In this document: positions 5 through 42,763 of the stretch, one piece after another
Position numbering within the stretch: position 1 is the first letter of the stretch
Layout of the letters: each line of letters begins with the position of its first letter
NCBI GenBank assembly: GCA_947628365.1
Contig: CANQZN010000001.1
Span: forward strand, 1 to 62,632
Reading direction: 5' to 3'
Length of the DNA stretch: 62,632 bases
Source: an uncultured Bacilli bacterium
Lineage (GTDB): Bacteria; Bacillota_I; Bacilli_A; RF39; UBA660
Program-made: the position numbers and the translations under genes
Notes under the pieces: model-generated
The model's database searches: none
What the model was told of the DNA's origin: nothing
What the model saw: only the letters and a program-made list of their open reading frames with translations

Positions 5-67
5 ATTATATATTACCCCCCCCGGTGTCAAGCTGTTATCAAAAAAATGTTGTTAACTCACAACATT
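5..67 (-). promoter_or_regulatory. Repeat cassette copy A. Minus strand has hairpin 67-46 plus T-run, TTGACA (31-26), CC, G8 (plus-strand C8 at 16-23), TAATA, TATAAT (10-5). It points leftwards out of the window.
   Basis: Near-identical to the cassettes at 1390-1453 and 8964-9025. Both hexamers are perfect consensus. The spacer counts to 15 nt (11-25). Confidence 0.6.
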
Positions 68-1360
68 AATTAATTTTATCCTAGCATATCCATTACCATT
101 ATTACCAACCATTTTATCCTTTCCATCATGAGTTGGCATTTCCGTGTTACCTGCAATCATTTCCATATCAATAAATACTTTACCACTATAATGATATGAA
201 CAAGTTATATTTGGAGATTCCTCTGTACATCCATCGTTAGTTATAATATTATCTGCAGCTGATTCTTTTTTTATTGCAATACATCCTTTATATCCTGAGA
301 TAAAGGATGAACCACCAGCACCGGAAACCCCAGTCATTCCTTCATCTACACCACCTCCGCCACCATAGTAGCCACTACCTCCTCCGGCTCTAGTGCGAGT
401 ATCATTCATAATATAATTTCCGCCAATGCCAAATTTCCCGAAAGATTCTTCTGTCTTGTTATCATTTGGTATACCACCTGATGTTTGAGTTCCACCAATT
501 GGATTTGCTAAAACTCTATTATCTGATTCTTCTATTGGATCATACTTAATTTCTCCATTACCACCATTTAAGGCACCGCCAAATCCACCATTTATATTTC
601 CTGAATTGTTCCACCAAAACGCTCCACCTCCACCAGCTGCAACCATTATTCTTGATTTTAATGAATTAAAATCATTCCAATTACCAGTATCAGAAATTTC
701 TAATCTCACATCTGTAGCTCCACCTCCACTAGCGGCCGCTGTCCATGGATGCTGTTTTCCATTACCTCCACCATTAAATGTTTCAGATACGACATAATCA
801 ACTTGTGGAGTATAATGATGTCCTTCTTCACCAACAAAAATATATAATTTATCTTGTTTATTTAATGTAATCGTTCCTTTCGTATAAGCGCCTTTACCAC
901 CTTCAGCACCAGTTTCAGTTGATCCTCCACTTGCTCCCCACAATTCTATTTGATAATTGCCTGTCTTTGGAGCTATAAATACTTGATAGCTTCCGGTATA
1001 ATCAAATTCTTTTTCTTCTAGTAAATCAAAATATAAATAACAATAAAATGATTTATTACTTTTTACTCCGACTTGATCATTCTTCGTATATAAGGCATTT
1101 TCTATTTCATTTCCCTTGTTATCCATACATTTACTTTTATTTAAATTTAATACGTAACCTTTGGGAAAACTATATCCTTCATATTTTTGATAACCATTCT
1201 CTATTTCAGTATACATAGCAAAGGCATTATTATTTACCTCTTGTTTTAGTATGACATCATCTAACTTTTCTTCTTTATTGGTTTTTGCTAATATGACACC
1301 AGTTAGTATTACTCCTACCAAAAGTATTATTACTAAATATTTCTTGTTAATTATTCTCAT
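53..1360 (-). CDS. Membrane-anchored surface protein: family N-terminal module plus a glycine-rich C-terminal domain
   Basis: N-terminal TM anchor (KKYLVIILLVGVILTGVIL). The first ~115 aa are shared with the ORFs at 7624-8934 and 38384-39661. The C-terminal part (YQVFIAPKTGNYQIELWGASGG...GGKGAY...LYIFVGEEG plus many GGG runs) resembles the bacterial glycine-rich domain family as I remember it. Confidence 0.75.
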   Translation of the reverse strand: MRIINKKYLVIILLVGVILTGVILAKTNKEEKLDDVILKQEVNNNAFAMYTEIENGYQKYEGYSFPKGYVLNLNKSKCMDNKGNEIENALYTKNDQVGVKSNKSFYCYLYFDLLEEKEFDYTGSYQVFIAPKTGNYQIELWGASGGSTETGAEGGKGAYTKGTITLNKQDKLYIFVGEEGHHYTPQVDYVVSETFNGGGNGKQHPWTAAASGGGATDVRLEISDTGNWNDFNSLKSRIMVAAGGGGAFWWNNSGNINGGFGGALNGGNGEIKYDPIEESDNRVLANPIGGTQTSGGIPNDNKTEESFGKFGIGGNYIMNDTRTRAGGGSGYYGGGGGVDEGMTGVSGAGGSSFISGYKGCIAIKKESAADNIITNDGCTEESPNITCSYHYSGKVFIDMEMIAGNTEMPTHDGKDKMVGNNGNGYARIKLINVVS

Positions 1361-1389
1361 AAAATATCTTCTTTCTATTTTATAAGATA

Positions 1390-1453
1390 ATTATATATTA
1401 CCCCCCCCCCGGTGTCAAGCTGTTGTGAAAAAAATGTTGTTAACTACAACATT
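1390..1453 (-). promoter_or_regulatory. Repeat cassette copy B. It contains the prmC terminator hairpin (1453-1433) plus T-run, TTGACA (1418-1413), CC, G10 (plus-strand C10 at 1401-1410), TAATA, TATAAT (1395-1390). It is the promoter of ORF 53-1360.
   Basis: Perfect -35 and -10 hexamers. The spacer (1396-1412) is 17 nt. The ATG at 1360 lies about 30 nt downstream of the -10. Confidence 0.65.
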
Positions 1454-2163
1454 TTGGATGATATAAAAATATATCTATCATAATTATTATAATCTTTCTC
1501 AATTTTGATATAAGAATTAGGTAAATATTTTTTTGCTATTTTTTTTATTTCGCTACCTTGATTTGCCCCAATTTCAAAGGCTATTAAAAAATTTTCATTT
1601 AAATTATTAAACAGTTTTTCTAAAATAACTTTATAGAAATATAAACCATTATCACTTGCATAAATAGCATTTTGGGGTTCATATTTAATTTTTTCATCTA
1701 CTTCACTATCATATGGAACATATGGAGGGTTACTAATTATAACGTCATATTTATTATTTGTACTAAATTCATTTATATCTTGAAGTTCAAAATCAATATT
1801 TACCTTATTTAATTTAGCGTTTTCTTTGGCTTTATCTAAAGCTTTTTTACTTATATCAATTGCGGTTATTTCACAATCTATGTTTTTTTTAAGAGCAATA
1901 CTGATACAACCACTTCCAGTACCCACCTCTAAAATACTAGGATGATTTATATCTAGCTTTTGTATATATTTAATAGTTTTATCAACAAGATATTCTGTTT
2001 CAAATCTAGGTATTAAAACATTTTCATTAACATTAATAAGACAATCATAAAAATCAACATTACCTATAATATATTGAACTGGATATCCTTCTTTTAATTT
2101 TTCTTTCGCTTCTTTTTGTTTATCAGTGGGTACATATTTTTTGATTAACTCTAAATCAGTCAT
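1444..2163 (-). CDS. prmC: Release-factor glutamine N5-methyltransferase (HemK/PrmC)
   Basis: SAM motif VGTGSGCI and NPPY motif (IISNPPYVP). Abuts prfA directly. Confidence 0.85.
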   Translation of the reverse strand: MTDLELIKKYVPTDKQKEAKEKLKEGYPVQYIIGNVDFYDCLINVNENVLIPRFETEYLVDKTIKYIQKLDINHPSILEVGTGSGCISIALKKNIDCEITAIDISKKALDKAKENAKLNKVNIDFELQDINEFSTNNKYDVIISNPPYVPYDSEVDEKIKYEPQNAIYASDNGLYFYKVILEKLFNNLNENFLIAFEIGANQGSEIKKIAKKYLPNSYIKIEKDYNNYDRYIFISSKML

Positions 2164-5662: not shown

Positions 5663-7600
5663 GTGATTAAATTGCGCGCTCTAAAAATATTTTTAAAATC
5701 AATTATTTTTTGCATTTTAGCCTTTATTATTTGCTATATTGGTATTAACACTTATGCAATTATTACCCCTAAATTAAACATTACTAATAATGGAACTTAC
5801 TTTTTATATGACAATAAAGATGAACTTGTTTATCAAGGAAGTACCACCTCTTCTTGGGTTAATTTAGAAGATATTGATGAAGATTTAATTAACTCGGTAA
5901 TAGCAATTGAAGACAAGAAATTTTATTCGCATCATGGTTTTGATTTACTTAGAATTGCGAAAGCTATGTTAAGTAATATTTCTTCTGGAAAAATAGTCCA
6001 AGGTGGATCGACTATAACGCAACAATTAGTTAAAAATTTATATTTAGATTTTGGTAAAACTTGGAAAAGAAAGATTGAAGAAGCATTCTTAACTATAATT
6101 GTTGAAATACAATACGATAAAGATGAAATACTAGAAGCGTATCTTAACACGATTAACTATGGTAATGGTAACTATGGGGTAAGTAATGCAAGTAGATATT
6201 ATTTCAATAAAGATGCAGATAATTTAACTTTAGAAGAAGCAATTATTTTAGCAGGTATTCCAAAAAGTCCTAATAGATATAATCCAGTAGCATCGAGAGA
6301 AGCATCAATTAATAGATCTAAAGTGGTTGCAAGTGCAATGCTTACTAATGGGTATATAGATAATGAAACATTTGAAAAATTAGATTTTGAATCGGTTAAT
6401 ATATATGGTAAAAGTAATGAAAATAACTTACAAATGCTTATGTATTATCAAGATGCAGTTTATAAAGAATTGGAATCTTTAGGGATAAGTAAAAGTATTC
6501 TAGAAACTGGTGGACTTAAAGTATATACTAATTTAGATATGGCTAAACAAACTAGTTTAGAGAAAAATATTTTATATAATTTACCTGATGATAATGAATT
6601 ACAAGTGGCAAGTGTTATAGTAGATCCCATGAGTGGTAAAATAGAAGCTTTAACTGGCGGTATTGATTATGGAAAAAGTCAGTACAATAGAGCTACTCAG
6701 TCCAAAAGACAAGTTGGGTCCACTATGAAAGCTTTCTTATATTATGGGGCTTTAGAAAATAATTTAGTATCCTCTTCTAAGTTCTCTAGTGAATACACAA
6801 CTTTTAATATTAGTAACTTACAAACTTATTCACCGACTAATTTTAATAATAAATATGCCAATAAAGAAATAACTATGGCGGCAGCAATTGCTTTTTCAGA
6901 TAATATTTATGCCGTTAAAACTAATTTATTTTTAGGAACGGAAACTCTTGTTAATACTGCTAAAAAAGCGGGAATTAAAGAAAAATTAGAAGCCATACCT
7001 TCTCTTGCTTTAGGTACTGGAGAAATAAATATTCTTGATTACGCTACTGGATATGCAACACTTGCCAGTGGTGGCTATAAAAAAGATTTATATTTTATTA
7101 GAAAAATTGAAGACAATGAAGGTAATGTTATTTACAATAAGGAAGAAAAGAAAAACTTAGTATTAAATCCAAATTATGTTTATATTTTAAATGAACTACT
7201 TTCTAATACTAGTAATTCAGCATTTAAAGATTATACTAGTGCAACGGCATCAACTATTGCTAGTAAATTAAGTCGAAAATATGCGATTAAAACAGGAACT
7301 ACTGCTTCTGATTACTGGACAGTTGGTTATAATAAAGACGATTTAATGCTAATATGGTTAGGATATGACGATAATAGAGAGTTTACTACTGGATATAGTT
7401 ATGTAGGTAAAAATGCTTTTGCTGATACCATTGAAGAAATTCAAAAAGATTTAGAAGATAATTGGTATAAGACTCCAGAAAATGTTGTTGGGCTAATTTT
7501 AGACTCAGTAACTGGTGAACTTACCAATGATAAATCTAGAGCTGTTATGTATTATTATTTAAAAGGTAGTGAACCAGATTTAAAGAAAAATGCCACTTAA
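5663..7600 (+). CDS. Class A penicillin-binding protein (glycosyltransferase plus transpeptidase)
   Basis: GT51 motifs EDKKFYSHHGFD, GGSTITQQL, RKIEE. Transpeptidase motifs STMK and KTGT. The alternative start TTG at 5672 has a better SD (AGGTGA). Confidence 0.9.
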   Translation: MIKLRALKIFLKSIIFCILAFIICYIGINTYAIITPKLNITNNGTYFLYDNKDELVYQGSTTSSWVNLEDIDEDLINSVIAIEDKKFYSHHGFDLLRIAKAMLSNISSGKIVQGGSTITQQLVKNLYLDFGKTWKRKIEEAFLTIIVEIQYDKDEILEAYLNTINYGNGNYGVSNASRYYFNKDADNLTLEEAIILAGIPKSPNRYNPVASREASINRSKVVASAMLTNGYIDNETFEKLDFESVNIYGKSNENNLQMLMYYQDAVYKELESLGISKSILETGGLKVYTNLDMAKQTSLEKNILYNLPDDNELQVASVIVDPMSGKIEALTGGIDYGKSQYNRATQSKRQVGSTMKAFLYYGALENNLVSSSKFSSEYTTFNISNLQTYSPTNFNNKYANKEITMAAAIAFSDNIYAVKTNLFLGTETLVNTAKKAGIKEKLEAIPSLALGTGEINILDYATGYATLASGGYKKDLYFIRKIEDNEGNVIYNKEEKKNLVLNPNYVYILNELLSNTSNSAFKDYTSATASTIASKLSRKYAIKTGTTASDYWTVGYNKDDLMLIWLGYDDNREFTTGYSYVGKNAFADTIEEIQKDLEDNWYKTPENVVGLILDSVTGELTNDKSRAVMYYYLKGSEPDLKKNAT

Positions 7601-7623: not shown

Positions 7624-8934
7624 TTAAAATTCGATAATAAAGGGATCTTCTAGTGTTCCAGTTCCAGTTTCACTTTTTAATTTTTGAGATGCATCGATAT
7701 AAAAGACTGGACGAACAAAGAAGAAGGCTGCCATAGGAAAATCTTTATTGAAACCCGTGGGATATACATAATGTCCTAAGAAAAAGCCACTGAAATTATC
7801 CCAGCCAAACCTTGTCATCGTCCATTCACCTCCACTTACTTTATGTTCATCATCATTTTGGGATAAATGCAACCAGCCAGTTTGACAAATTTCATAATTT
7901 TCTGCATAGAGTTCACAGTTTGCTATATCACTTACGGAATAATTATAATCATGCAGATACATTAAGCTTACTTTTCCAGTAAATGTTTTATCCCATTTTT
8001 CATTTTCATGTCTTATATAATAAACTTGCTGTCCATGGAGTGAAGAATCCGACTTATCATCTACCACCGCTGATTTTGCTCCAGGATCTCCAGCATTTGC
8101 TTTTTCATCCCATATTGTACCTTTTTGACCAGTTTCTATTAAATATAATTCTTTTCCAGTTTGTTTTGCACCTAAGGTATCATTGCTAAACATATCTCCA
8201 TATAGCCAAGTATTATCGGATATTTTTTCTTTCCAGCCCTCTGGAACATATGCAGGGTTTTCTAAGAAACTAGTTCCTTTTATTGCTTCATATATTTTAC
8301 TTTGTGGAAATTCTATATCTGTATCGTTGTTAATATACCATTGTATTCCTTGTTCTAATGCTTCTTTTTTAATTACTTTTACTCTTCCAGTAGATGCTTC
8401 TATTCCTATTATTCTATACATATAATGATCTGTATCACTTGTACATGTATCTTTATCACTTGTTCCAAAACAGATATAGTTATTTATTCCTTCACTTTGT
8501 TGTCCTTGGAATCTATACATTGCACCACGCTCCTTATCTGTCTTAAGTCCATGTGAACTTATATCATTAGTTTCAAAAATCTCTGCACCTAAAGTTTTAT
8601 CAAAATATAAATAACAATAAGTAGTAATTCCACTCGTTATTGTTACATTACCATTTTCATAACTAAGCACTCCATTTAATTCATTTCCATTATTATCTAT
8701 ACATTTTGATTCTGTTAAGTTAAGTACATACATCTCTGGAAATTTATTATCTTCAACTGGAACATACTCATTTCCTTCTTCTTTATACATAGCAAATGTT
8801 TTATTATTTACTTCTTGTTTTAATATTACATTATCCAATTGAACTTTTTCTTTTGGTTTTAATATTATGACACCAGTTAGTATTATTCCACCCAACAATA
8901 TTATTAATAAATATTTTTTGTTAATTATTCTCAT
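7624..8934 (-). CDS. Membrane-anchored surface protein: family N-terminal module plus a second type of C-terminal domain
   Basis: N-terminal TM anchor. Full-length paralogue of 38384-39661 (shared blocks YMYRIIGIEASTGRVKVIKKEAL, GKVSLMYLHDY, VRPVFY, GTLEDPFII). Shares only its N-terminus with 53-1360. Confidence 0.75.
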   Translation of the reverse strand: MRIINKKYLLIILLGGIILTGVIILKPKEKVQLDNVILKQEVNNKTFAMYKEEGNEYVPVEDNKFPEMYVLNLTESKCIDNNGNELNGVLSYENGNVTITSGITTYCYLYFDKTLGAEIFETNDISSHGLKTDKERGAMYRFQGQQSEGINNYICFGTSDKDTCTSDTDHYMYRIIGIEASTGRVKVIKKEALEQGIQWYINNDTDIEFPQSKIYEAIKGTSFLENPAYVPEGWKEKISDNTWLYGDMFSNDTLGAKQTGKELYLIETGQKGTIWDEKANAGDPGAKSAVVDDKSDSSLHGQQVYYIRHENEKWDKTFTGKVSLMYLHDYNYSVSDIANCELYAENYEICQTGWLHLSQNDDEHKVSGGEWTMTRFGWDNFSGFFLGHYVYPTGFNKDFPMAAFFFVRPVFYIDASQKLKSETGTGTLEDPFIIEF

Positions 8935-8963: not shown

Positions 8964-9025
8964 ATTATATATTACCCCCCCCGGTGTCAAGTTTCTTTCA
9001 AAAAAATGTTGTTAACTCCAACATT
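8964..9025 (-). promoter_or_regulatory. Repeat cassette copy C. It contains a terminator hairpin after the ParB-family gene (9025-9005) plus T-run, TTGACA (8990-8985), CC, G8 (plus-strand C8 at 8975-8982), TAATA, TATAAT (8969-8964). It is the promoter of ORF 7624-8934.
   Basis: Same cassette as copy B but with a 15-nt spacer (8970-8984). A strong SD (AAAGGAGAA) precedes the ATG at 8934. Confidence 0.65.
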
Positions 9026-9034
9026 TTTATAATT

Positions 9035-10854: not shown

Positions 10855-12706
10855 TATTATATTCCTTCTTTAAATAGATTGATAATATAGTTAAATCAAC
10901 TGGGTTAACCCCACTAATTCTAGATGCTTGAGCAATAGTTCTAGGTCTTACTTGACTTAATTTTTGTTTGGCTTCACTTGCTAAATTCTTAATTTTACTA
11001 TAATCAATATCTTCTGGTATTTCTTTTTCTTCTATCTTTAATAATTTTTGCGCTTCTTTTAAGGCTTTTTCAATATACCCACCATATTTTAAATTAATTT
11101 CTACTTGATATATAACCTCTTCATCATAATTAAACTTATGAAAATTACTTAAGAAATTAAAATTAATTTCTGGTCTTTTTAATAATTCTTTATAAGTTAT
11201 ATTTTGTTTAGGTATTTCTATATTATTTTTAATGAAAGTATCTTTAACCTCATCATTTATGACTAATTTTAATTCACTTAATTCAGTCATTAATTTTTGA
11301 ATATTTTCTTTCTTATCTAGTAATCTTTTATATTGTTCATCGCTAATTGTTCCTGTGTTGTATGCTAAATCTCTAAGTCTTAAATCAGCATTATCGTGAC
11401 GTAAAATAAGTCTAAATTCTGCTCTACTAGTAAGCATCCTATAAGGATCAGTTATTCCTTTTGTAACTAAATCATCAATTAATACACCAATATAGGCTTC
11501 ATTTCTTTTTAAAATTAATGGCTCCTTACCTTGTAATTTCAAAGATGCATTAATACCTGCAACTATACCTTGACCAGCAGCTTCTTCATAACCACTTGTT
11601 CCATTAATTTGACCAGCAGTAAATAAATTTTCTAATATTTTATTTTCCATATTTGGTTTCATTAATAAAGGGTTTATTGCATCGTATTCAATAGCATAAG
11701 CATATTTAGTTATTTTAGCATTTTCTAGTCCCTTTAAAGAGTGAACCATTTCTTCTTGAACATAAATAGGCATACTAGTAGAAAAACCTTGTAAATACCA
11801 CTCATCATAATATATACTTTCTGGTTCTAAAAATAATTGATGACGAGGTTTATCACTAAATCTAACTACTTTATCTTCAATAGATGGACAATATCTTGGT
11901 CCTACTCCAGTTGCATAACCTCCATACATAGCAGATTCTTTTAAGTGTTCATTAATAATTTTATGCGTTAATTCATTTGTATAAAGTAAATAACATTTTT
12001 GTTGTTTATTAATCTCATATTGAGGTTTTATATCATGACTAAATGTCCAATAAGTATCATCGCCACTTTCTTCTTGCATTACAGAAAAATCAATGGAATC
12101 TTTTTGAATTCTTGGAGGTGTACCAGTTTTTAATCTAATTATCTCTAAACCATATTTTTTTAAATTATCACTTAAATGATTACTTCTCCCCTCTCCATGA
12201 GGTCCTTCTTCTTTGGAGGTACTACCTACTAAAATATTGGCCTTTAAATAAGTACCAGTAGTTAAGATAACTGATTTTGCCTTAATGTTTTCCCCATTTG
12301 CTAAAATTACACCCATAACTTTATTATCTTTAACAATTAGATCTTCCACTAAACCTTCTTTAATTTCTAAGTTAGCAGTATTTTCTAAGAATTCTAACAT
12401 TTTTTTAGGATATACTCTTTTATCGGCTTGGGCTCTTAAGCTTCTTACAGCAGGTCCTTTAGAGTTATTAAGCATTTTAATTTGAAAATGACTTAAATCT
12501 GCTACTACACCCATTAAGCCACCAAGAGCATCAACCTCTCTTACTATAATTCCTTTGGCTGTTCCACCAATAGAGGGATTACATGGCATATCAGCAATAT
12601 TATTTTTATTCATAGTTAAAAGAAGTGTCTTCATACCCATTTTGGCACTTATATGAGATGCTTCACAACCAGCATGTCCACCACCAACTACAATAATATC
12701 ATACAT
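10841..12706 (-). CDS. mnmG: tRNA uridine 5-carboxymethylaminomethyl modification enzyme MnmG (GidA)
   Basis: FAD motif VVGGGHAGCEA. About 620 aa. Adjacent to mnmE. Confidence 0.95.
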   Translation of the reverse strand: MYDIIVVGGGHAGCEASHISAKMGMKTLLLTMNKNNIADMPCNPSIGGTAKGIIVREVDALGGLMGVVADLSHFQIKMLNNSKGPAVRSLRAQADKRVYPKKMLEFLENTANLEIKEGLVEDLIVKDNKVMGVILANGENIKAKSVILTTGTYLKANILVGSTSKEEGPHGEGRSNHLSDNLKKYGLEIIRLKTGTPPRIQKDSIDFSVMQEESGDDTYWTFSHDIKPQYEINKQQKCYLLYTNELTHKIINEHLKESAMYGGYATGVGPRYCPSIEDKVVRFSDKPRHQLFLEPESIYYDEWYLQGFSTSMPIYVQEEMVHSLKGLENAKITKYAYAIEYDAINPLLMKPNMENKILENLFTAGQINGTSGYEEAAGQGIVAGINASLKLQGKEPLILKRNEAYIGVLIDDLVTKGITDPYRMLTSRAEFRLILRHDNADLRLRDLAYNTGTISDEQYKRLLDKKENIQKLMTELSELKLVINDEVKDTFIKNNIEIPKQNITYKELLKRPEINFNFLSNFHKFNYDEEVIYQVEINLKYGGYIEKALKEAQKLLKIEEKEIPEDIDYSKIKNLASEAKQKLSQVRPRTIAQASRISGVNPVDLTILSIYLKKEYNNDTK

Positions 12707-16374: not shown

Positions 16375-18105
16375 ATGAATATTAAAAAACGAGTATTTTC
16401 AATTCTTATTAGTTTGTCAATTATGATTAATTTAATGACACCATATAATAAGGATAAGAAAAATGATAATGAGTGTGAAATAGCAAGTGAAGTAGTTTTA
16501 GAAGAAGATAAAGTTTTAGCATCTTCTTTTAACTATAATATAAATGAGGTACGTGATTACTTTAAAAATCAAGAATATTTAAGTACTGATAATATAGATA
16601 AAGATAAAATACAACAAATATATAATTATGAAAAAAAAGATTGTCCCTTTATATTTAATGGTAATGTATCCTCTTTAATTAATAAAATAAAACAAAATTC
16701 TTTAACTTATGCTCAAAGTAACCCACAATATAATTATTTATTTTCTGATTCAATGATGCAAGTATTTCCAAGTGATGACTATACAGAATCTTTACAAAAG
16801 ATATATGAGCAATACAAAGATGAACTTTTAAAGGATGGGAAATATGATTATGAATTACAAGGACAATTAATTTTTAATATAGCCCTTGAATATATCATAT
16901 ATAATTTAGTTTTAAATAGTACCAATGACTTAAATGAAGATTTATGTAAAATACAAAATTTAGCCATAGTAGAGGGTAGTTGTAACAAGGAAGATGAGGT
17001 AGTACCTACATTTACCTTAGGAATATATAATTCAGATACAAATGTGATAGTAATTGATTATGAATATAATAAAATAGCAACATTTTTAAGTAATTTTTCT
17101 TTAAAGCCAGCATCTTTTGAATTATTTAAAGCTATGACTGATAAAGTTATAGCAACCCTTAGTCATGAACTAAATCACGCAAGACAAGAAATGTGTGAGC
17201 ATCGGAAAATAGAGCAAGATCATACCTTATTTAATTATATAGTTAGGGTAAATGATAAATCTTATTTATATAAACCAATATATTTTGAAACATCTGCCGA
17301 AAGTGATTTATATAATTATGAAATATTAGTTCAAAATGAAGATGATAATCATTTTAATCACTCTTATGTTTATGAAAGAGAAGATGAATCTTTATTATTT
17401 TTATTAACGATTTTTAATAATAAACCAATAGATGACTATTATGATGCTATATTTGATTTAGATATTAAGAAATTCTATGATTTCTTTGATTGCCATAATA
17501 TAACTGATTATGAAGAAATATATAGAATTTTACAAACATTTAATAATATTTATAGAGAAAATAGAGAGATAGAAAAATATAATAATCAAGATTATTTACA
17601 TTTTAAATTAGAAATTTTTACAAAAACTTTAGATAATTTTATTAAATATATTGAACTTAACCCTAATTTTACTTATGAAGAACAAATATTTTTATATGGA
17701 ATTATTAGAGAAGTAATCATTGATAATGCTTATATGAATAACTTAGAAAAATTACAAAGAGAAAACGTAAGTATAGCTAGTTTAGATGAGGATTTTTGGG
17801 ATAATTTTAAATTGTATGAATACGATAATAACTTTATGGAAGAAATAGATAAGTTAAATCAAAAATTTATTGAATACTTAAGTTATAAACATAATAAATC
17901 AACTTTCAGTGTTCAATTAGATTTAAATAAAAGTGTAGAAGATATAACTAATTTAGATACCCATTTAAGTGTATTAGAAGAAAGATTTTCAAAATTAAAA
18001 GCTATTATCTTTACTACATACATAAATAATAACTATAATAGGGTCATAAATTATTATAAATTAGAAAATAGAGAAGATAACTTAACTAGAAAACTTGAAA
18101 ATTAA
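16375..18105 (+). CDS. Hypothetical secreted or membrane-anchored protein with one HExxH motif
   Basis: N-terminal hydrophobic signal (VFSILISLSIMINLM), LSHELNHARQE, and SD AAGAGGGA. No family recognised. Confidence 0.55.
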   Translation: MNIKKRVFSILISLSIMINLMTPYNKDKKNDNECEIASEVVLEEDKVLASSFNYNINEVRDYFKNQEYLSTDNIDKDKIQQIYNYEKKDCPFIFNGNVSSLINKIKQNSLTYAQSNPQYNYLFSDSMMQVFPSDDYTESLQKIYEQYKDELLKDGKYDYELQGQLIFNIALEYIIYNLVLNSTNDLNEDLCKIQNLAIVEGSCNKEDEVVPTFTLGIYNSDTNVIVIDYEYNKIATFLSNFSLKPASFELFKAMTDKVIATLSHELNHARQEMCEHRKIEQDHTLFNYIVRVNDKSYLYKPIYFETSAESDLYNYEILVQNEDDNHFNHSYVYEREDESLLFLLTIFNNKPIDDYYDAIFDLDIKKFYDFFDCHNITDYEEIYRILQTFNNIYRENREIEKYNNQDYLHFKLEIFTKTLDNFIKYIELNPNFTYEEQIFLYGIIREVIIDNAYMNNLEKLQRENVSIASLDEDFWDNFKLYEYDNNFMEEIDKLNQKFIEYLSYKHNKSTFSVQLDLNKSVEDITNLDTHLSVLEERFSKLKAIIFTTYINNNYNRVINYYKLENREDNLTRKLEN

Positions 18106-19932: not shown

Positions 19933-21051
19933 ATGAAGTTTGTTATTGATAAGAATATTTTATTGGAGGCTCTTACTAATGTTACAAGAGCTATTGGAAC
20001 GAGAACAACTATTCCAATCCTTACAGGTATTAAATTTGATTTAACAAATGATGGTTTAAGTTTACTTGCAAGTGATTCTGAATTAACAATTAAAATAAAT
20101 ATTGAAGAGAAAGATATTAAAAAGATAGATAAATGTGGTAGTATTATAATTCAAAGTAAATATATATTAGAATTAATAAGAAAAATGCCTTCTGATATTA
20201 TTAACTTTGAAAGTGAAGAAGATGGAAAGATTAAAATTTATACCGATAATAATGAATATAATTTAAATTGTTATGATATAAATGATTATCCAAATATTTT
20301 ATTAGAAGAATCGAAAGAACCAATTGTTATTGATGCAAAAACATTAAAAGAAGTAATTAATGAAACATCTTATGCTGTATCTACGCAAGAAGTAAGACCT
20401 CTTTTAACTGGTGTCAATATCAAAATATATGGTGATACTTTAGAATGTATTGCTACTGATTCTTATCGTTTAGCTAAGAAAAATATAAAATTAAATAATC
20501 AATATAATACTAATATCAATATTGTTATACCTGGAAAAAGTATAAATGAACTTGAGAAAATGATAAATGAAGAAGATGATGTTATTATGCATATATTTAA
20601 TAACAAAATTTTATTTAAATATCATAATATTCAATTCCAAACTAATCTTTTAAGTGGAACATATCCAGATACAAGTAATTTTATTCCTAAAGATTTTGCT
20701 TATATGATTAATTTAGATTTAAATGCCTTTAATAGTGCAGTTGATAGAGCATCTCTTCTTGCTCAAAGTAAAGATAAAAATATTGTTAGAGTTTTAGTAG
20801 ATAATAAATTAATGGTTATATCATCTAGTGTTAGTGAAATAGGTAAAACTGAGGAAAAATTAAATATTGAGTGTAGTAATAAAGAAAAACTTGAAATTGC
20901 CTTTTCTTCTCGTTATATGCTTGAAGCTTTAAAAGTAATAAAAGATGATAATATATTGTTATTAATTAATAGTGATGATAAACCTATTTTAATTAAATCT
21001 GTAAAAGATGAATCATTAATTGAACTTATTTTACCTGTAAAAACATATTAA
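19933..21051 (+). CDS. dnaN: DNA polymerase III beta sliding clamp
   Basis: 372 aa, typical N-terminus MKFVIDKNILLEAL, located directly after dnaA. Confidence 0.95.
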   Translation: MKFVIDKNILLEALTNVTRAIGTRTTIPILTGIKFDLTNDGLSLLASDSELTIKINIEEKDIKKIDKCGSIIIQSKYILELIRKMPSDIINFESEEDGKIKIYTDNNEYNLNCYDINDYPNILLEESKEPIVIDAKTLKEVINETSYAVSTQEVRPLLTGVNIKIYGDTLECIATDSYRLAKKNIKLNNQYNTNINIVIPGKSINELEKMINEEDDVIMHIFNNKILFKYHNIQFQTNLLSGTYPDTSNFIPKDFAYMINLDLNAFNSAVDRASLLAQSKDKNIVRVLVDNKLMVISSSVSEIGKTEEKLNIECSNKEKLEIAFSSRYMLEALKVIKDDNILLLINSDDKPILIKSVKDESLIELILPVKTY

Positions 21052-21054
21052 AAA

Positions 21055-21070
21055 TATTTCCCGGGAAATA
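21055..21070. promoter_or_regulatory. Perfect Noc-binding-site (NBS) 16-mer TATTTCCCGGGAAATA
   Basis: Exact palindrome 4 nt after the dnaN stop. Identical to the three sites in the 27.2-27.7 kb island. Confidence 0.7.
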
Positions 21071-21095
21071 ATTCGACATATTATTTCCTTTTTTT
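21064..21095 (+). terminator. dnaN intrinsic terminator
   Basis: Stem GGAAATAAT / ATTATTTCC, 7-nt loop TCGACAT, then T7. The loop plus flank contains TTCGACA (21072-21078), the complement of the Spo0A box TGTCGAA. Confidence 0.7.
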
Positions 21096-21131: not shown

Positions 21132-21572
21132 ATGACAAACTTCATAATCAATAATGAAACTGTCGCAGTTTTAAAGAAAAATAAGAAAATTATAAAATAT
21201 AATGTTGATAACTATGAAGTTATTAACAAAAATTTAAATTCTTTTTTAGATTTTAATTGTCTTTATTATGGTAGTAGTTTAAAGGGAAGAATAAAATATG
21301 CGAAACTTATCCTTAATATTAGTTATAAATGCCCAATCTTGATATCAGAGAAAGAAAATTTAATATTAATTCCTTTAAATTCATTAAAAAATGAGGAAAC
21401 AATACTAATCATGCTTAATAAAATAAAAGATTATCAAGAAAATGGTGATATGTTATCGATTACTTGTGTTAATAATCAAGTATTTTCAGTTAAATTATCT
21501 AAATATAGTTTTGAAAAATCAATAATTAATGCCCTTAAATTAAATAATCAAATAAAATGGCTAAACTATTAA
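21132..21572 (+). CDS. ComK-family protein (competence transcription factor-like)
   Basis: By-eye alignment to remembered B. subtilis ComK. NCLYYGSSLKGR aligns with SCRFFGSSYAGR, YKCPILIS with HKPPIMVD, LILIPLNS with IFLFPTLS, and KYSFEKS with YNSFENQ. Confidence 0.6.
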   Translation: MTNFIINNETVAVLKKNKKIIKYNVDNYEVINKNLNSFLDFNCLYYGSSLKGRIKYAKLILNISYKCPILISEKENLILIPLNSLKNEETILIMLNKIKDYQENGDMLSITCVNNQVFSVKLSKYSFEKSIINALKLNNQIKWLNY

Positions 21573-27228: not shown

Positions 27229-27258
27229 GTTACATGAAACATAGATATAGGTCAGAAA

Positions 27259-27274
27259 TATTTCCCGGGAAATA
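27259..27274. promoter_or_regulatory. NBS-1: perfect TATTTCCCGGGAAATA inside a 34-bp perfect palindrome (27250-27283)
   Basis: Read directly: GGTCAGAAATATTTCCC|GGGAAATATTTCTGACC. Confidence 0.75.
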
Positions 27275-27435
27275 TTTCTGACCGGTAATGTATATTTTAA
27301 AAGTTCTATTTTTAACTATTTATTGCTATTATGAATAGGAATCTGTTAATTTAAATAATCTCATCGATTATTATTTAAACAAAGCACTTTTTAAACTTTT
27401 TAAAGCCAATATATTATTATTGATTTGTATTTCAA

Positions 27436-27451
27436 TGTTTCACGTGAAACA
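27436..27451. promoter_or_regulatory. parS: parS-1: perfect TGTTTCACGTGAAACA inside a 32-bp perfect palindrome (27428-27459)
   Basis: Read directly: TATTTCAATGTTTCAC|GTGAAACATTGAAATA. Matches the consensus ParB/Spo0J centromere site. Confidence 0.85.
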
Positions 27452-27475
27452 TTGAAATAAGAATAAGATCACAAT

Positions 27476-27491
27476 TATTTCCCGGGAAATA
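27476..27491. promoter_or_regulatory. NBS-2: perfect TATTTCCCGGGAAATA
   Basis: Core of a 22-bp perfect palindrome (27473-27494), 24 bp from parS-1. Confidence 0.75.
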
Positions 27492-27635
27492 ATTTGTAGG
27501 TAAAAAATTATTAAAAATTAATCTTGCAAATCATCGGTCAAAAAGCATTATAAATGATTTGGCCGGTATAAATCATTTAAAAATTAGAAAAATTAACAAT
27601 AATTTCCATGAAAAATATGTTTATATAATTCACAA

Positions 27636-37424: not shown

Positions 37425-37934
37425 ATGACTAAAAGTGGAATTACTAGAAGAATTGATGAGTTAGGTAGAATCGTAGTTCCCAAAGAAATAAGATATAATT
37501 TAGGTATAAGAGATGGTGAGCCATTAGAAATATATACTAGTGATAATTCAATTATAATAAAAAAATATTCCCAAGTAGAGAATATAAAAGATTTAAGTCA
37601 AAATATCTGTAATATTATAAATGATGTCTGTAATTTAGAAATTTTAATAAGTGATAGAGAGAAAATAATTGCTAGTAGTAATAATTTAAAAGGTTTATTA
37701 GAGTCTAAATTAGATACAAAATATAAAGATTTAATTGATAATAGAGAGTCTTATATAAGTGATAGTGAAGATATAATATTTAATATTCATGCTTATCTTA
37801 CTATCATACCTATTATTACCTCTACTGATTGCAGTGGTCTTATAATAATATTTTCAAAACAAAAACAAGAAGAAAATATCAAATATGCTAAAATAGTTCA
37901 AAAGTTAATAGTGCAAAAATTAGATATTGCTTAA
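37425..37934 (+). CDS. spoVT: AbrB-family stage V sporulation regulator SpoVT
   Basis: GITRRIDELGRIVVPKEIRYNLGIRDGEPLEIY plus a ~110-aa C-terminal sensor domain. Follows mfd as in Bacillus. Confidence 0.85.
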   Translation: MTKSGITRRIDELGRIVVPKEIRYNLGIRDGEPLEIYTSDNSIIIKKYSQVENIKDLSQNICNIINDVCNLEILISDREKIIASSNNLKGLLESKLDTKYKDLIDNRESYISDSEDIIFNIHAYLTIIPIITSTDCSGLIIIFSKQKQEENIKYAKIVQKLIVQKLDIA

Positions 37935-37940
37935 ATTTAT

Positions 37941-37973
37941 TGTTGAGAACTTAATTGTTTTCAACATTTTTTT
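37941..37973 (+). terminator. spoVT intrinsic terminator
   Basis: TGTTGAGAAC / GTTTTCAACA stem (one G-U pair), 6-nt loop, then T7. Confidence 0.7.
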
Positions 37974-38256
37974 ATTTAGTAAAATCATGTTCTTTAAAAA
38001 ATTCTTCAAATGGTATATTTAAAACTTTACTTATACTTGCAACAACTGTTATAGAAAATGTTTGTTTTACTTTTTCACTTTCTATATTTGAAATTAATGT
38101 TCTAGACACATCACATAACTCAGCCAATTTTTCTTGGGTAATTCTTCCGTATCTATCCGTATATTTAGAGTTATTATGTATTCTATAATACTTTATATTT
38201 CTTGAAATTCTTAAAAATATTTGGTCCAATTCTTCATTTGTTATCATATTTTTCAC
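37972..38256 (-). CDS. XRE-family helix-turn-helix transcriptional regulator
   Basis: ITQEKLAELCDVSRTLISNIESEK is a classic HTH_3 pattern. Divergent from 38384-39661. Confidence 0.8.
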   Translation of the reverse strand: MKNMITNEELDQIFLRISRNIKYYRIHNNSKYTDRYGRITQEKLAELCDVSRTLISNIESEKVKQTFSITVVASISKVLNIPFEEFFKEHDFTK

Positions 38257-41933: not shown

Positions 41934-42694
41934 TGTTTACTGATAGTCATTGTCATATTTATTCCGAATATTATCCTAATATTGAAGAGGCTATCAATAA
42001 TGCAGTAAGTAATAAAGTAAATAGATTTCTTAATAATGGCTGTGATAGAAAAACTTGTGAAGAGGTCTTAAAACTAATAGATATTTATCCTAATATGTAT
42101 GGTGCTATAGGTATTCACCCAGAAAATGTTAATGATTATAAGATAGATGATTTAAAATTTATTGAAGATAATTTAAATAATAAAAAGGTTGTAGCAATTG
42201 GAGAAATAGGACTTGATTATCACTATACTAAAGAGGATAAAGATAAACAAATAAGTTTATTTGAAAAAGAATTATCTTTAGCGGAAAAATATAATATTCC
42301 TGTAATAATTCATAGTAGAGATGCAACACTAGATACATTAAATATTTTAAAAAAATATAAAGTTAAAGGTATAATTCACTCTTTTTCTGGTAGTCTAGAA
42401 ACTGCTTTAGAGTATATTAAAATGGGTTATTTACTAGGAGTTAATGGGGTTATTACTTTTAAAAATGCGAAGATTAAAGATGTTTTTGCAAAAATATCTT
42501 TAGAGTCTATAGTTTTAGAAACAGACTCACCATATTTAACACCAGAACCTTTTCGGGGACACTCAAATGAACCTGCTCATATTATAGAGATTGCTAAATT
42601 TATCTCAGACTTAAAAGGTGTAAGTTTAGAAAGTCTTGCTAAAATAACAAATAATAATTTAAATAAAATGTTTAATTTTAATGTTGATAACTAG
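41933..42694 (+). CDS. tatD: TatD-family metal-dependent DNase/hydrolase
   Basis: FTDSHCH, GEIGLDYH, IHSRDA, ETDSPYL. Confidence 0.9.
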   Translation: MFTDSHCHIYSEYYPNIEEAINNAVSNKVNRFLNNGCDRKTCEEVLKLIDIYPNMYGAIGIHPENVNDYKIDDLKFIEDNLNNKKVVAIGEIGLDYHYTKEDKDKQISLFEKELSLAEKYNIPVIIHSRDATLDTLNILKKYKVKGIIHSFSGSLETALEYIKMGYLLGVNGVITFKNAKIKDVFAKISLESIVLETDSPYLTPEPFRGHSNEPAHIIEIAKFISDLKGVSLESLAKITNNNLNKMFNFNVDN

Positions 42695-42763
42695 TAGGTT
42701 TTCAACATTTTTTCTTGCACTATAAAAGTAGTTAAGGTAAAATAATTTTTGTTGGTGAAAAAA

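Follow-up and report, generated by a model that had tools for sequence, protein, structure and literature searches.

A poly-G tract in the promoter spacer of a predicted surface-protein family from uncultured gut Bacilli: a candidate phase-variation switch

Promoter cassettes in the window and the genes behind them

The window, by which we mean the whole 62.6-kb stretch of DNA that was analysed (26.8% GC), spans a chromosomal origin region, with jag, yidC, mnmE, mnmG, rsmG and parB on one side and dnaA, dnaN, recF, gyrB, gyrA and mfd on the other, and includes a cell-wall gene (PBP, 5663–7600). Between yidC and dnaA lies an ORF of 576 aa (16375–18105, plus strand), for which no Pfam match was obtained at E <= 1e-5. 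The use of genetic code 4 was considered and rejected: read with table 11 the long ORFs are unbroken, and just 2 of the 41 long frames terminate in TGA. On its minus strand the window carries three copies of a cassette that is composed, in this order, of an AU-rich hairpin, a T7 run, about 10 variable bases, the hexamer TTGACA, CC, a run of G, TAATA and the hexamer TATAAT:

1413–1418, minus strand: cassette 1, -35 hexamer TTGACA (from the sequence; 12/12 promoter match)
1401–1410, minus strand: cassette 1, poly-G tract G10 (C10 on the plus strand), making up 10 of the 17 spacer bases
1390–1395, minus strand: cassette 1, -10 hexamer TATAAT (spacer 17 bp)
1431–1455, minus strand: cassette 1, AU-rich hairpin, with the T7 run at 1428–1434 (RNA fold -8.2 kcal/mol, z-score -4.1)
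8964–8990, minus strand: cassette 2, promoter (TTGACA 8985–8990, G8 8975–8982, TATAAT 8964–8969; spacer 15 bp)
9002–9028, minus strand: cassette 2, hairpin and T-run downstream of parB (-9.6 kcal/mol, z-score -4.1)
5–31, minus strand: cassette 3, promoter (TTGACA 26–31, G8 16–23, TATAAT 5–10; spacer 15 bp)
46–67, minus strand: cassette 3, hairpin and T-run overlapping the stop codon of ORF 53–1360 (-7.7 kcal/mol, z-score -2.9)

The sequence-only reading of this DNA had described perfect hexamers around a poly-G tract on the minus strand, spaced by 17 nt with G10 in one copy and by 15 nt with G8 in the two others, and all three copies read exactly so, with the same coordinates and lengths. It had also seen no comparable G/C homopolymer in the 62 kb, and indeed the three cassette tracts are the only G/C homopolymers of at least 6 nt in the entire window. 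The cassette pattern matches the window three times and 100 dinucleotide-preserving shuffles not once, and in a promoter scan the G10 cassette is the sole 12/12 match of the sigma-70 type in the first 10.2 kb. Chance is excluded as the origin of the cassettes by the shuffles, the rarity of G/C runs and the 12/12 match. The same type of scan revealed no TG extended -10 motif upstream of TATAAT in cassette 1, hence the -35 hexamer and its spacing should matter there; the ATG of ORF 53–1360 (1358–1360) follows 29 nt past the -10 hexamer. An alternative -10 hexamer, AATTAT, placed at an 18-bp spacer in the G8 state (10/12), was rejected, as it lacks the first T of the hexamer and could at most be a source of leakiness.

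The hairpins have weak, AU-rich stems of 8–10 bp followed by U7, and lie over or immediately after the stop codons of prmC, parB and ORF 53–1360. In cassette 1 the core reads AATGTTGT-AGTTA-ACAACATT, with the prmC stop codon TAG (1444–1446) inside the hairpin. By sequence and predicted folds they combine a stem-loop, an adjoining U-run and a position at the 3' end of the upstream gene, as Rho-independent terminators do, and the cassette 1 hairpin is predicted to be, most likely, the intrinsic terminator of prmC and at the same time an insulator of the promoter that follows. A generic terminator scan did not call the cassette hairpins because it demands at least 3 G-C pairs; an Rfam search of the window found no match at the cassettes, the only hits being a T-box leader and an SRP RNA elsewhere. 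When the copies are compared, only the 3' arm and the T-run are conserved; the 5' arm differs from locus to locus or is absent, and some copies have a decayed hairpin. Strictly speaking, the terminator does not belong to a portable terminator-plus-switch module.

In the window species the motif AACAACA forms the 3' arm of the terminator hairpin, directly before T7 (1431–1440, 9002–9011 and 46–53, minus strand). Cassettes of four species have this motif, and in each its first base lies 21 nt, without deviation, ahead of the -35 hexamer; in the metagenome-assembled genome Lapin-001__bin81 both the motif and its distance are kept despite the absence of a hairpin and a T-run. It may represent an UP-element-like site or a candidate site for a regulator. 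In two metagenome contigs described below (L051, 8540–8575, and L054, 5350–5385; orthologs of window 38–67), the cassette 3 hairpin is altered, with GAGTTAAACAACAGGGTTTTTTT versus GAGTTAACAACATTTTTTT, and its stem is weakened (-7.0 kcal/mol, z-score -1.4).

The cassettes precede genes of a paralogous family, which in the window comprises the following members, together with one regulatory neighbour:

53–1360, minus strand: family gene 1, 435 aa; N-terminal membrane anchor and N-module (residues 1–112), then an ALK_LTK_GRD domain (PF12810, E = 3.6e-55)
7624–8934, minus strand: family gene 2, 436 aa; helix 6–24, flexible linker, beta-rich N-module 47–113, then a domain of about 300 aa
38384–39661, plus strand: third paralog (tblastn, 60% identity to ORF 7624–8934), with no poly-G tract
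37978–38250, minus strand: XRE-type HTH gene (HTH_3, PF01381), divergent neighbour of the third paralog

The N-termini of ORF 53–1360 and ORF 7624–8934 share 59% identity over 112 residues, after which the two proteins diverge completely. The notion of modular anchored proteins is thereby borne out: an N-terminal module of about 112 aa with a predicted membrane anchor is fused to different C-terminal domains, which include, behind the shared 5' region, ALK_LTK_GRD (glycine-rich in ORF 53–1360), a domain without a Pfam family and Laminin_G_3 (P0193). For the domain of about 300 aa in ORF 7624–8934, searches of Pfam, NCBIfam and PDB sequences identified no family. This protein has 383 homologs, the closest of which are about 420–440 aa long, and in its AlphaFold2 model (mean pLDDT 89) a disordered linker joins a membrane helix to a small beta module, which is followed by a large domain of mixed type. 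Foldseek aligned the model in part to the IgA peptidase of Thomasclavelia ramosa (9qa6, E = 8e-5, TM 0.33, 341 aligned columns), the only significant PDB fold match for the main domain of the family; weak matches included C-type lectins and the C-terminal domain of Legionella Lcl. We predict from these models that the family proteins are anchored by their N-termini, extracellular and exposed at the surface. Two other kinds of N-terminus were considered and rejected, namely a type IV pilin-like leader, as there is no G/FxxxE motif, and a lipoprotein, as the N-terminus MRIINKKYLVIILLVGVILTGVILAK has no Cys and no lipoprotein family was matched in Pfam or NCBIfam.

The third paralog lacks the G tract and adjoins an HTH gene; thus, the family uses more than one regulatory style, and not all of its members use the putative switch. 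Members without poly-G in other metagenome-assembled genomes (MAGs; e.g. L008 and L019) have what appears to be the end of a leftward-reading ORF and palindromes upstream. This arrangement suggests that part of the family may be under classical regulation.

The window, itself an entire contig, terminates within cassette 3, and the gene driven by this cassette consequently falls outside it. Its likely continuation is found at 20–676 of another contig (L001), the first bases of which match the sequence that follows cassette 3 in L051 and L054. In ENA as well as NCBI assemblies the apparent cassette 3 gene has an in-frame TAA directly past the N-module (P0002, P0165), and the gene calls divide it into a product of 120 aa and a C-terminal ORF of its own (294 aa, P0165, NCBI record). 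It may be a pseudogene or a split gene.

Recurrence of the cassette and variation of its tract

A scan of the GTDB species genomes with the exact cassette pattern yielded no match, since relatives differ from it by one or two bases (TTGACT, TATTA), and an exact match in a JGI metagenome (L005) was dismissed as chance, for it lies inside a coding region of a high-GC contig. A profile search with the N-module was more productive and detected 45 loci in MAGs from rabbit, goat and human gut, which NCBI labels "uncultured Bacilli". Five further species-level MAGs (rabbit and goat) carry the same promoter design ahead of family genes, in the form TTGAC(A/T)-(C/T)C-G(n)-TA(A/T)TA-TATA(A/C)T, which brings the total to 38 cassette instances in 6 species-level genomes. 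In 370 kb of this DNA all G/C runs of at least 7 nt (37 of 37) fall within the cassette pattern, and wherever the ORF downstream of a cassette can be read, it belongs to the N-module family. In an alignment of the cassettes conservation is highest in the core TTGAC-..-G(n)-TA.TATATAAT, whereas the flanks diverge; the promoter core is identical even in paralogs that share only about 75% identity in their coding regions. Two of the related contigs bear on the suggestion that the host is a spore-forming Firmicute. CotE is matched in Pfam at 10861–11406 of L061, a contig whose cassettes are identical to those of the window and which is attributed to the window species, and YutH at 1380–2309 of L002, which carries a family paralog of about 69% identity. 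Both spore-coat matches fit a probable spore-former.

The spacer length equals the number of G plus 7, and the tract lies between a recognisable -35 and a recognisable -10 in the three window copies as in the 38 instances overall. Spacers of 15 bp are the most frequent (21 instances), followed by 16 bp (13), with two instances each of 14 and 17 bp. G8 is the most frequent tract in all but one of the six species-level genomes; in the exception, Lapin-001__bin81, G8 and G9 are equally common, its 17 cassettes comprising eight G9, eight G8 and one decayed A+G7. In this genome about half of the members of each of the two N-terminal subfamilies have G8 and about half G9, which means that tract length does not track the relatedness of the paralogs. 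The tract is a pure run of G in 36 of the 38 copies across the six species; decayed tracts that hold the 15-bp spacing are CCA-G7 (L014) and CTCT-G6 (L042). The 17-bp arrangement, i.e. G10, occurs at one locus only, in the window and in a contig (L055) that is 100% identical to it over the 994 nt they share.

To estimate what this lineage prefers at other promoters, pairs of near-consensus hexamers that lack a G tract were counted in the same DNA. Among matches of at least 11/12 there are 24 at a spacer of 17 bp against 8–9 at each of the spacers 14–16, and five of the eight perfect matches have a spacer of 17 bp. The earlier statement that 17 nt is the optimal spacer thus agrees with the peak seen in the lineage itself, and by this measure G10 is optimal and the common G8 and G9 are sub-optimal. 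The spacer distribution would fit a family in which most members are expressed weakly or not at all and a few are now and then turned up; on the other hand, G9 could already give useful expression, or 15 bp, the spacing that two decayed tracts retain, could be a functional resting state.

In all cassettes the G tract is followed by T and so forms a "GnT" motif. A recent report (PMC12344412) describes GnT motifs of at least 8 bp as hotspots of T-to-G substitution, with the rate raised more than 1000-fold. Such a change would extend the G run and leave the spacer unaltered; none is seen in the 38 copies.

Orthologous loci were obtained from five ENA metagenome contigs that derive from five samples and each encode a PrmC identical to that of the window. 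Around prmC, the window and the five contigs are identical across 994 nt apart from the tract, which in the contigs is G9, G9, G9, G8 and G10 and in the window G10. At cassette 3 the tract is G7 in L051 and L054 versus G8 in the window. L051 and L054 have no mismatch over 5,440 nt, and the single gap in their alignment is the tract (G9 vs G8); when L054 is compared to the window, all four indels fall within cassettes. In total, six of seven comparisons of G tracts with the window show a change of length, against none of 93 comparisons of A/T runs of at least 6 nt, which are up to 8 nt long. The G tract is thus by a wide margin the most indel-prone site of the region, polymorphic among close strains in constant flanks (8, 9, 9, 9, 10 and 10 at the focal locus; 7, 7 and 8 at the cassette 3 locus). 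A comparison of tract lengths across strains and MAGs had been named in the sequence-only reading as a check on the switch, with invariance as the outcome that would speak against it, and the lengths do vary, from 8 to 10 at the focal locus and from 7 to 8 at cassette 3. The five contigs are Illumina short-read assemblies with a coverage of 2–3.5x, in which a single tract call could be wrong; that G9 is shared by three assemblies and G7 by two argues against random error. For cassette 2 no orthologs were obtained, the RsmG contigs ending short of it, and look-ups with the exact sequences of both family proteins, ParB, P0165 and P0141 found none of them on record.

A candidate switch and the alternatives

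We propose, with a probability of roughly 70%, that slipped-strand changes in the length of the G run alter the spacing between -35 and -10 and hence the strength of the promoter, independently for each family member. The cassette would be a promoter of the housekeeping sigma factor (sigma-A type), with TTGACA or TTGACT at -35 and TATAAT at -10, and the G run would act as a contingency locus, in which slipped-strand mispairing during replication alters the number of G far more often than ordinary mutation does. The spacer would move in this way between 14 and 17 bp, with an optimal 17 bp at G10, 16 bp at G9 and poor spacings of 15 and 14 bp at G8 and G7. With a cassette of its own in front of each member of a large paralogous family, members could be raised or lowered independently and heritably, and the outcome would be a population of mixed surface phenotypes, i.e. 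phase variation or a graded "volume control". The upstream hairpin and T-run would block read-through from the preceding gene and leave expression to be set by the switch promoter alone. From the sequences we infer that a change in tract length would alter transcription, that switching would be reversible and frequent within a population, and which tract lengths would correspond to the ON state. The earlier suggestion of a phase-variation switch is supported, as a candidate, by the varying lengths at orthologous loci and by the conservation of the design in five MAGs.

Differences in the length of a homopolymer may of course originate in the sequencing. Errors are more frequent in G homopolymers of 8–10 nt than in A/T runs, the ENA contigs have low coverage, and many contigs from several independent assemblies start or stop inside or next to a cassette; if all length differences were errors of sequencing or assembly from low-coverage short reads, the true tract would be invariant. 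We regard this explanation as very unlikely. Contig breaks are to be expected from a repeat of 60–100 nt that is present in many copies, and at per-read error rates no higher than about 1% most assemblies should keep the right consensus. Besides, G9 recurs in three independent assemblies and G7 in two, A/T runs as long as 8 nt are constant in all 93 comparisons, and paralogs within single MAGs split cleanly into G8 and G9 with identical flanks. Granting that the variation is real, the tract might still be incidental, if the cassette and the N-module served chiefly as homology for recombination or gene conversion that shuffles the C-terminal domains. The promoter and the first ~112 codons are common to genes with differing C-terminal domains, and the promoter core is the same in paralogs of only about 75% identity in their coding regions, both of which speak for such shuffling. 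It would not account, however, for the position of a pure G run precisely between the hexamers or for its being the sole indel hotspot; moreover, recombination is compatible with a switch and is not an alternative to it. As a replacement for the switch we consider it the least probable of the explanations discussed here.

A homopolymer next to a promoter need not be a switch, as illustrated by the T-tract of Mycoplasma agalactiae vpma, which has no such role (PMC2268961). In the cassettes, the G tract could be a fixed cis-element, a site for a transcription factor or a structural spacer that works at 8–9 G, with conventional regulation of the genes and slippage as a mildly harmful by-product. 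The predominance of G8 in five of the six genomes and its tie in the sixth, the 15-bp spacing held by the decayed tracts of L014 and L042, the AACAACA motif at its fixed distance from -35 in four species, a hint of a further site bound by protein, and the pairing of other family members with divergent HTH regulators are all in its favour. Nevertheless, we know of no mechanism that would make 15 bp the optimum of a sigma-A type promoter, and near-consensus promoters of this very lineage peak at 17 bp. A costly hypermutable run would also be expected to become interrupted by substitutions, yet it is pure in 36 of 38 copies from six species, and at orthologous sites the length takes four different values. 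On balance a fixed element seems unlikely, if less so than the two explanations considered above.

If the G tract is a switch, its distribution would invite a wider proposal, which we find evenly poised between right and wrong: a whole clade of low-GC gut Bacilli, uncultured and probably able to form spores (those of rabbit and goat and the source of the window), would run a large combinatorial "phasome", in which at least 17 anchored surface proteins per genome each stand behind an insulated poly-G rheostat promoter that is low by default (G8) and occasionally slips to the 17-bp optimum. Should this be true, it would be the first family of promoter-spacer repeat switches in a cell-walled Firmicute.

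Relation to known systems and other repeats in the window

The vlp genes of Mycoplasma form a multigene family in which the 5' region (promoter and signal sequence) is highly conserved, the surface-exposed C-terminal parts diverge, and each gene switches independently. By this design of a conserved 5' region and a variable C-terminus, vlp would be the closest analogue of the system described here, in which a multigene family likewise has a conserved promoter and leader and divergent C-terminal parts. In Mollicutes, indels in the spacer switch vlp, maa2 and vmm (PMC2268961): in M. hyorhinis vlp, M. arthritidis maa2 and M. mycoides vmm, as proposed for the cassettes, the repeat that gains or loses units lies between -35 and -10 and turns expression ON or OFF (PMC2268961). 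Their Mycoplasma hosts are low-GC relatives of Bacillota and phylogenetically the nearest among the systems compared. The differences are also clear. The vlp tract is poly-A (vmm has TA repeats) and the Vlp proteins are lipoproteins with a lipobox, whereas the window has poly-G in a genome of 27% GC, and its proteins carry at the N-terminus a membrane anchor that looks uncleaved and lacks a lipobox Cys; searches of Pfam and NCBIfam gave no lipoprotein match, and the proteins are not Vlp homologs. Unlike Mycoplasma, the window organism has cell-wall genes (the PBP at 5663–7600), and spore-coat genes occur on contigs assigned to the species or carrying close family paralogs. Judged by its sequence, the window system would work like vlp without belonging to the vlp family.

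With respect to the tract itself, the best parallels are tp0126 of Treponema pallidum and porA of Neisseria meningitidis, both with poly-G between -35 and -10 and an optimum of 17 nt (PMC7864442). In tp0126 about 7–11 G separate the hexamers, a 17-nt spacer is optimal, and the length varies within and between isolates (PMC7864442). Poly-G tracts also control several tpr paralogs of T. pallidum, so that here, too, several paralogous surface-protein genes have a tract each (PMC7864442). The host is, however, a spirochaete, and the proteins are outer-membrane proteins with no sequence relationship to the window family; in tprE/G/J/L the tract lies upstream of the transcription start and not strictly in the spacer, and 8 G or fewer correspond to ON. 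Unlike Treponema, the window lineage has one uniform cassette with consensus hexamers at 17 or more genes per genome. In porA (poly-G) and opc (poly-C) a homopolymer in the spacer gives graded expression, and transcription falls or stops below the 17-bp optimum (PMC7864442), but these are single genes of a Gram-negative pathogen and no multigene family shares one cassette. Among cell-walled Firmicutes, a T tract of Streptococcus pyogenes M28 (Spy1336/R28–Spy1337) resembles the cassettes in that intergenic indels of 1 nt alter transcript levels of a surface-protein gene and that natural strains differ in the tract (PMC7098570); it differs in being a single poly-T locus, where the spacing of an AraC-type regulator site, rather than the -35/-10 distance, is thought to be the cause (PMC7098570). 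In the open-access literature we found no description of the window system, of its protein family, or of a family of promoter-spacer homopolymers in a spore-forming or cell-walled Firmicute. The mechanism as such is already established, and it is the lineage and the gene family that are new.

To our knowledge, nearly all work on phase variation driven by repeats has concerned pathogens, among them Neisseria, Haemophilus, Campylobacter, Treponema and Mycoplasma. In gut commensals, attention has been directed mainly to invertible promoters. The cassettes point to a slippage-based, lineage-wide, multigene system in uncultured gut Bacilli. If this is true, they would mark which proteins vary and are thereby likely targets of antibody, phage or host-glycan interactions; tract length would be a read-out, from sequence only, of the expression state of each member that could be mined from metagenomes; and the fragmentation of assemblies at cassette loci would be accounted for.

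The window contains two further types of repeated inverted elements. Hairpins of the form ATGTTGA...TCAACA, which resemble the arms of the cassette hairpins, occur at 37928–37972, 42669–42713 and 21183–21228, two of the three being followed by a T-run; they point to a terminator type shared within this genome or to a small repeat. Palindromes of the sequence TTTCCCGGGAAA are repeated at 21028–21073, 27232–27277 and 27449–27494, in an AT-rich context downstream of dnaN and gyrA, and are possibly terminators with a GC core or members of a small repeat family.
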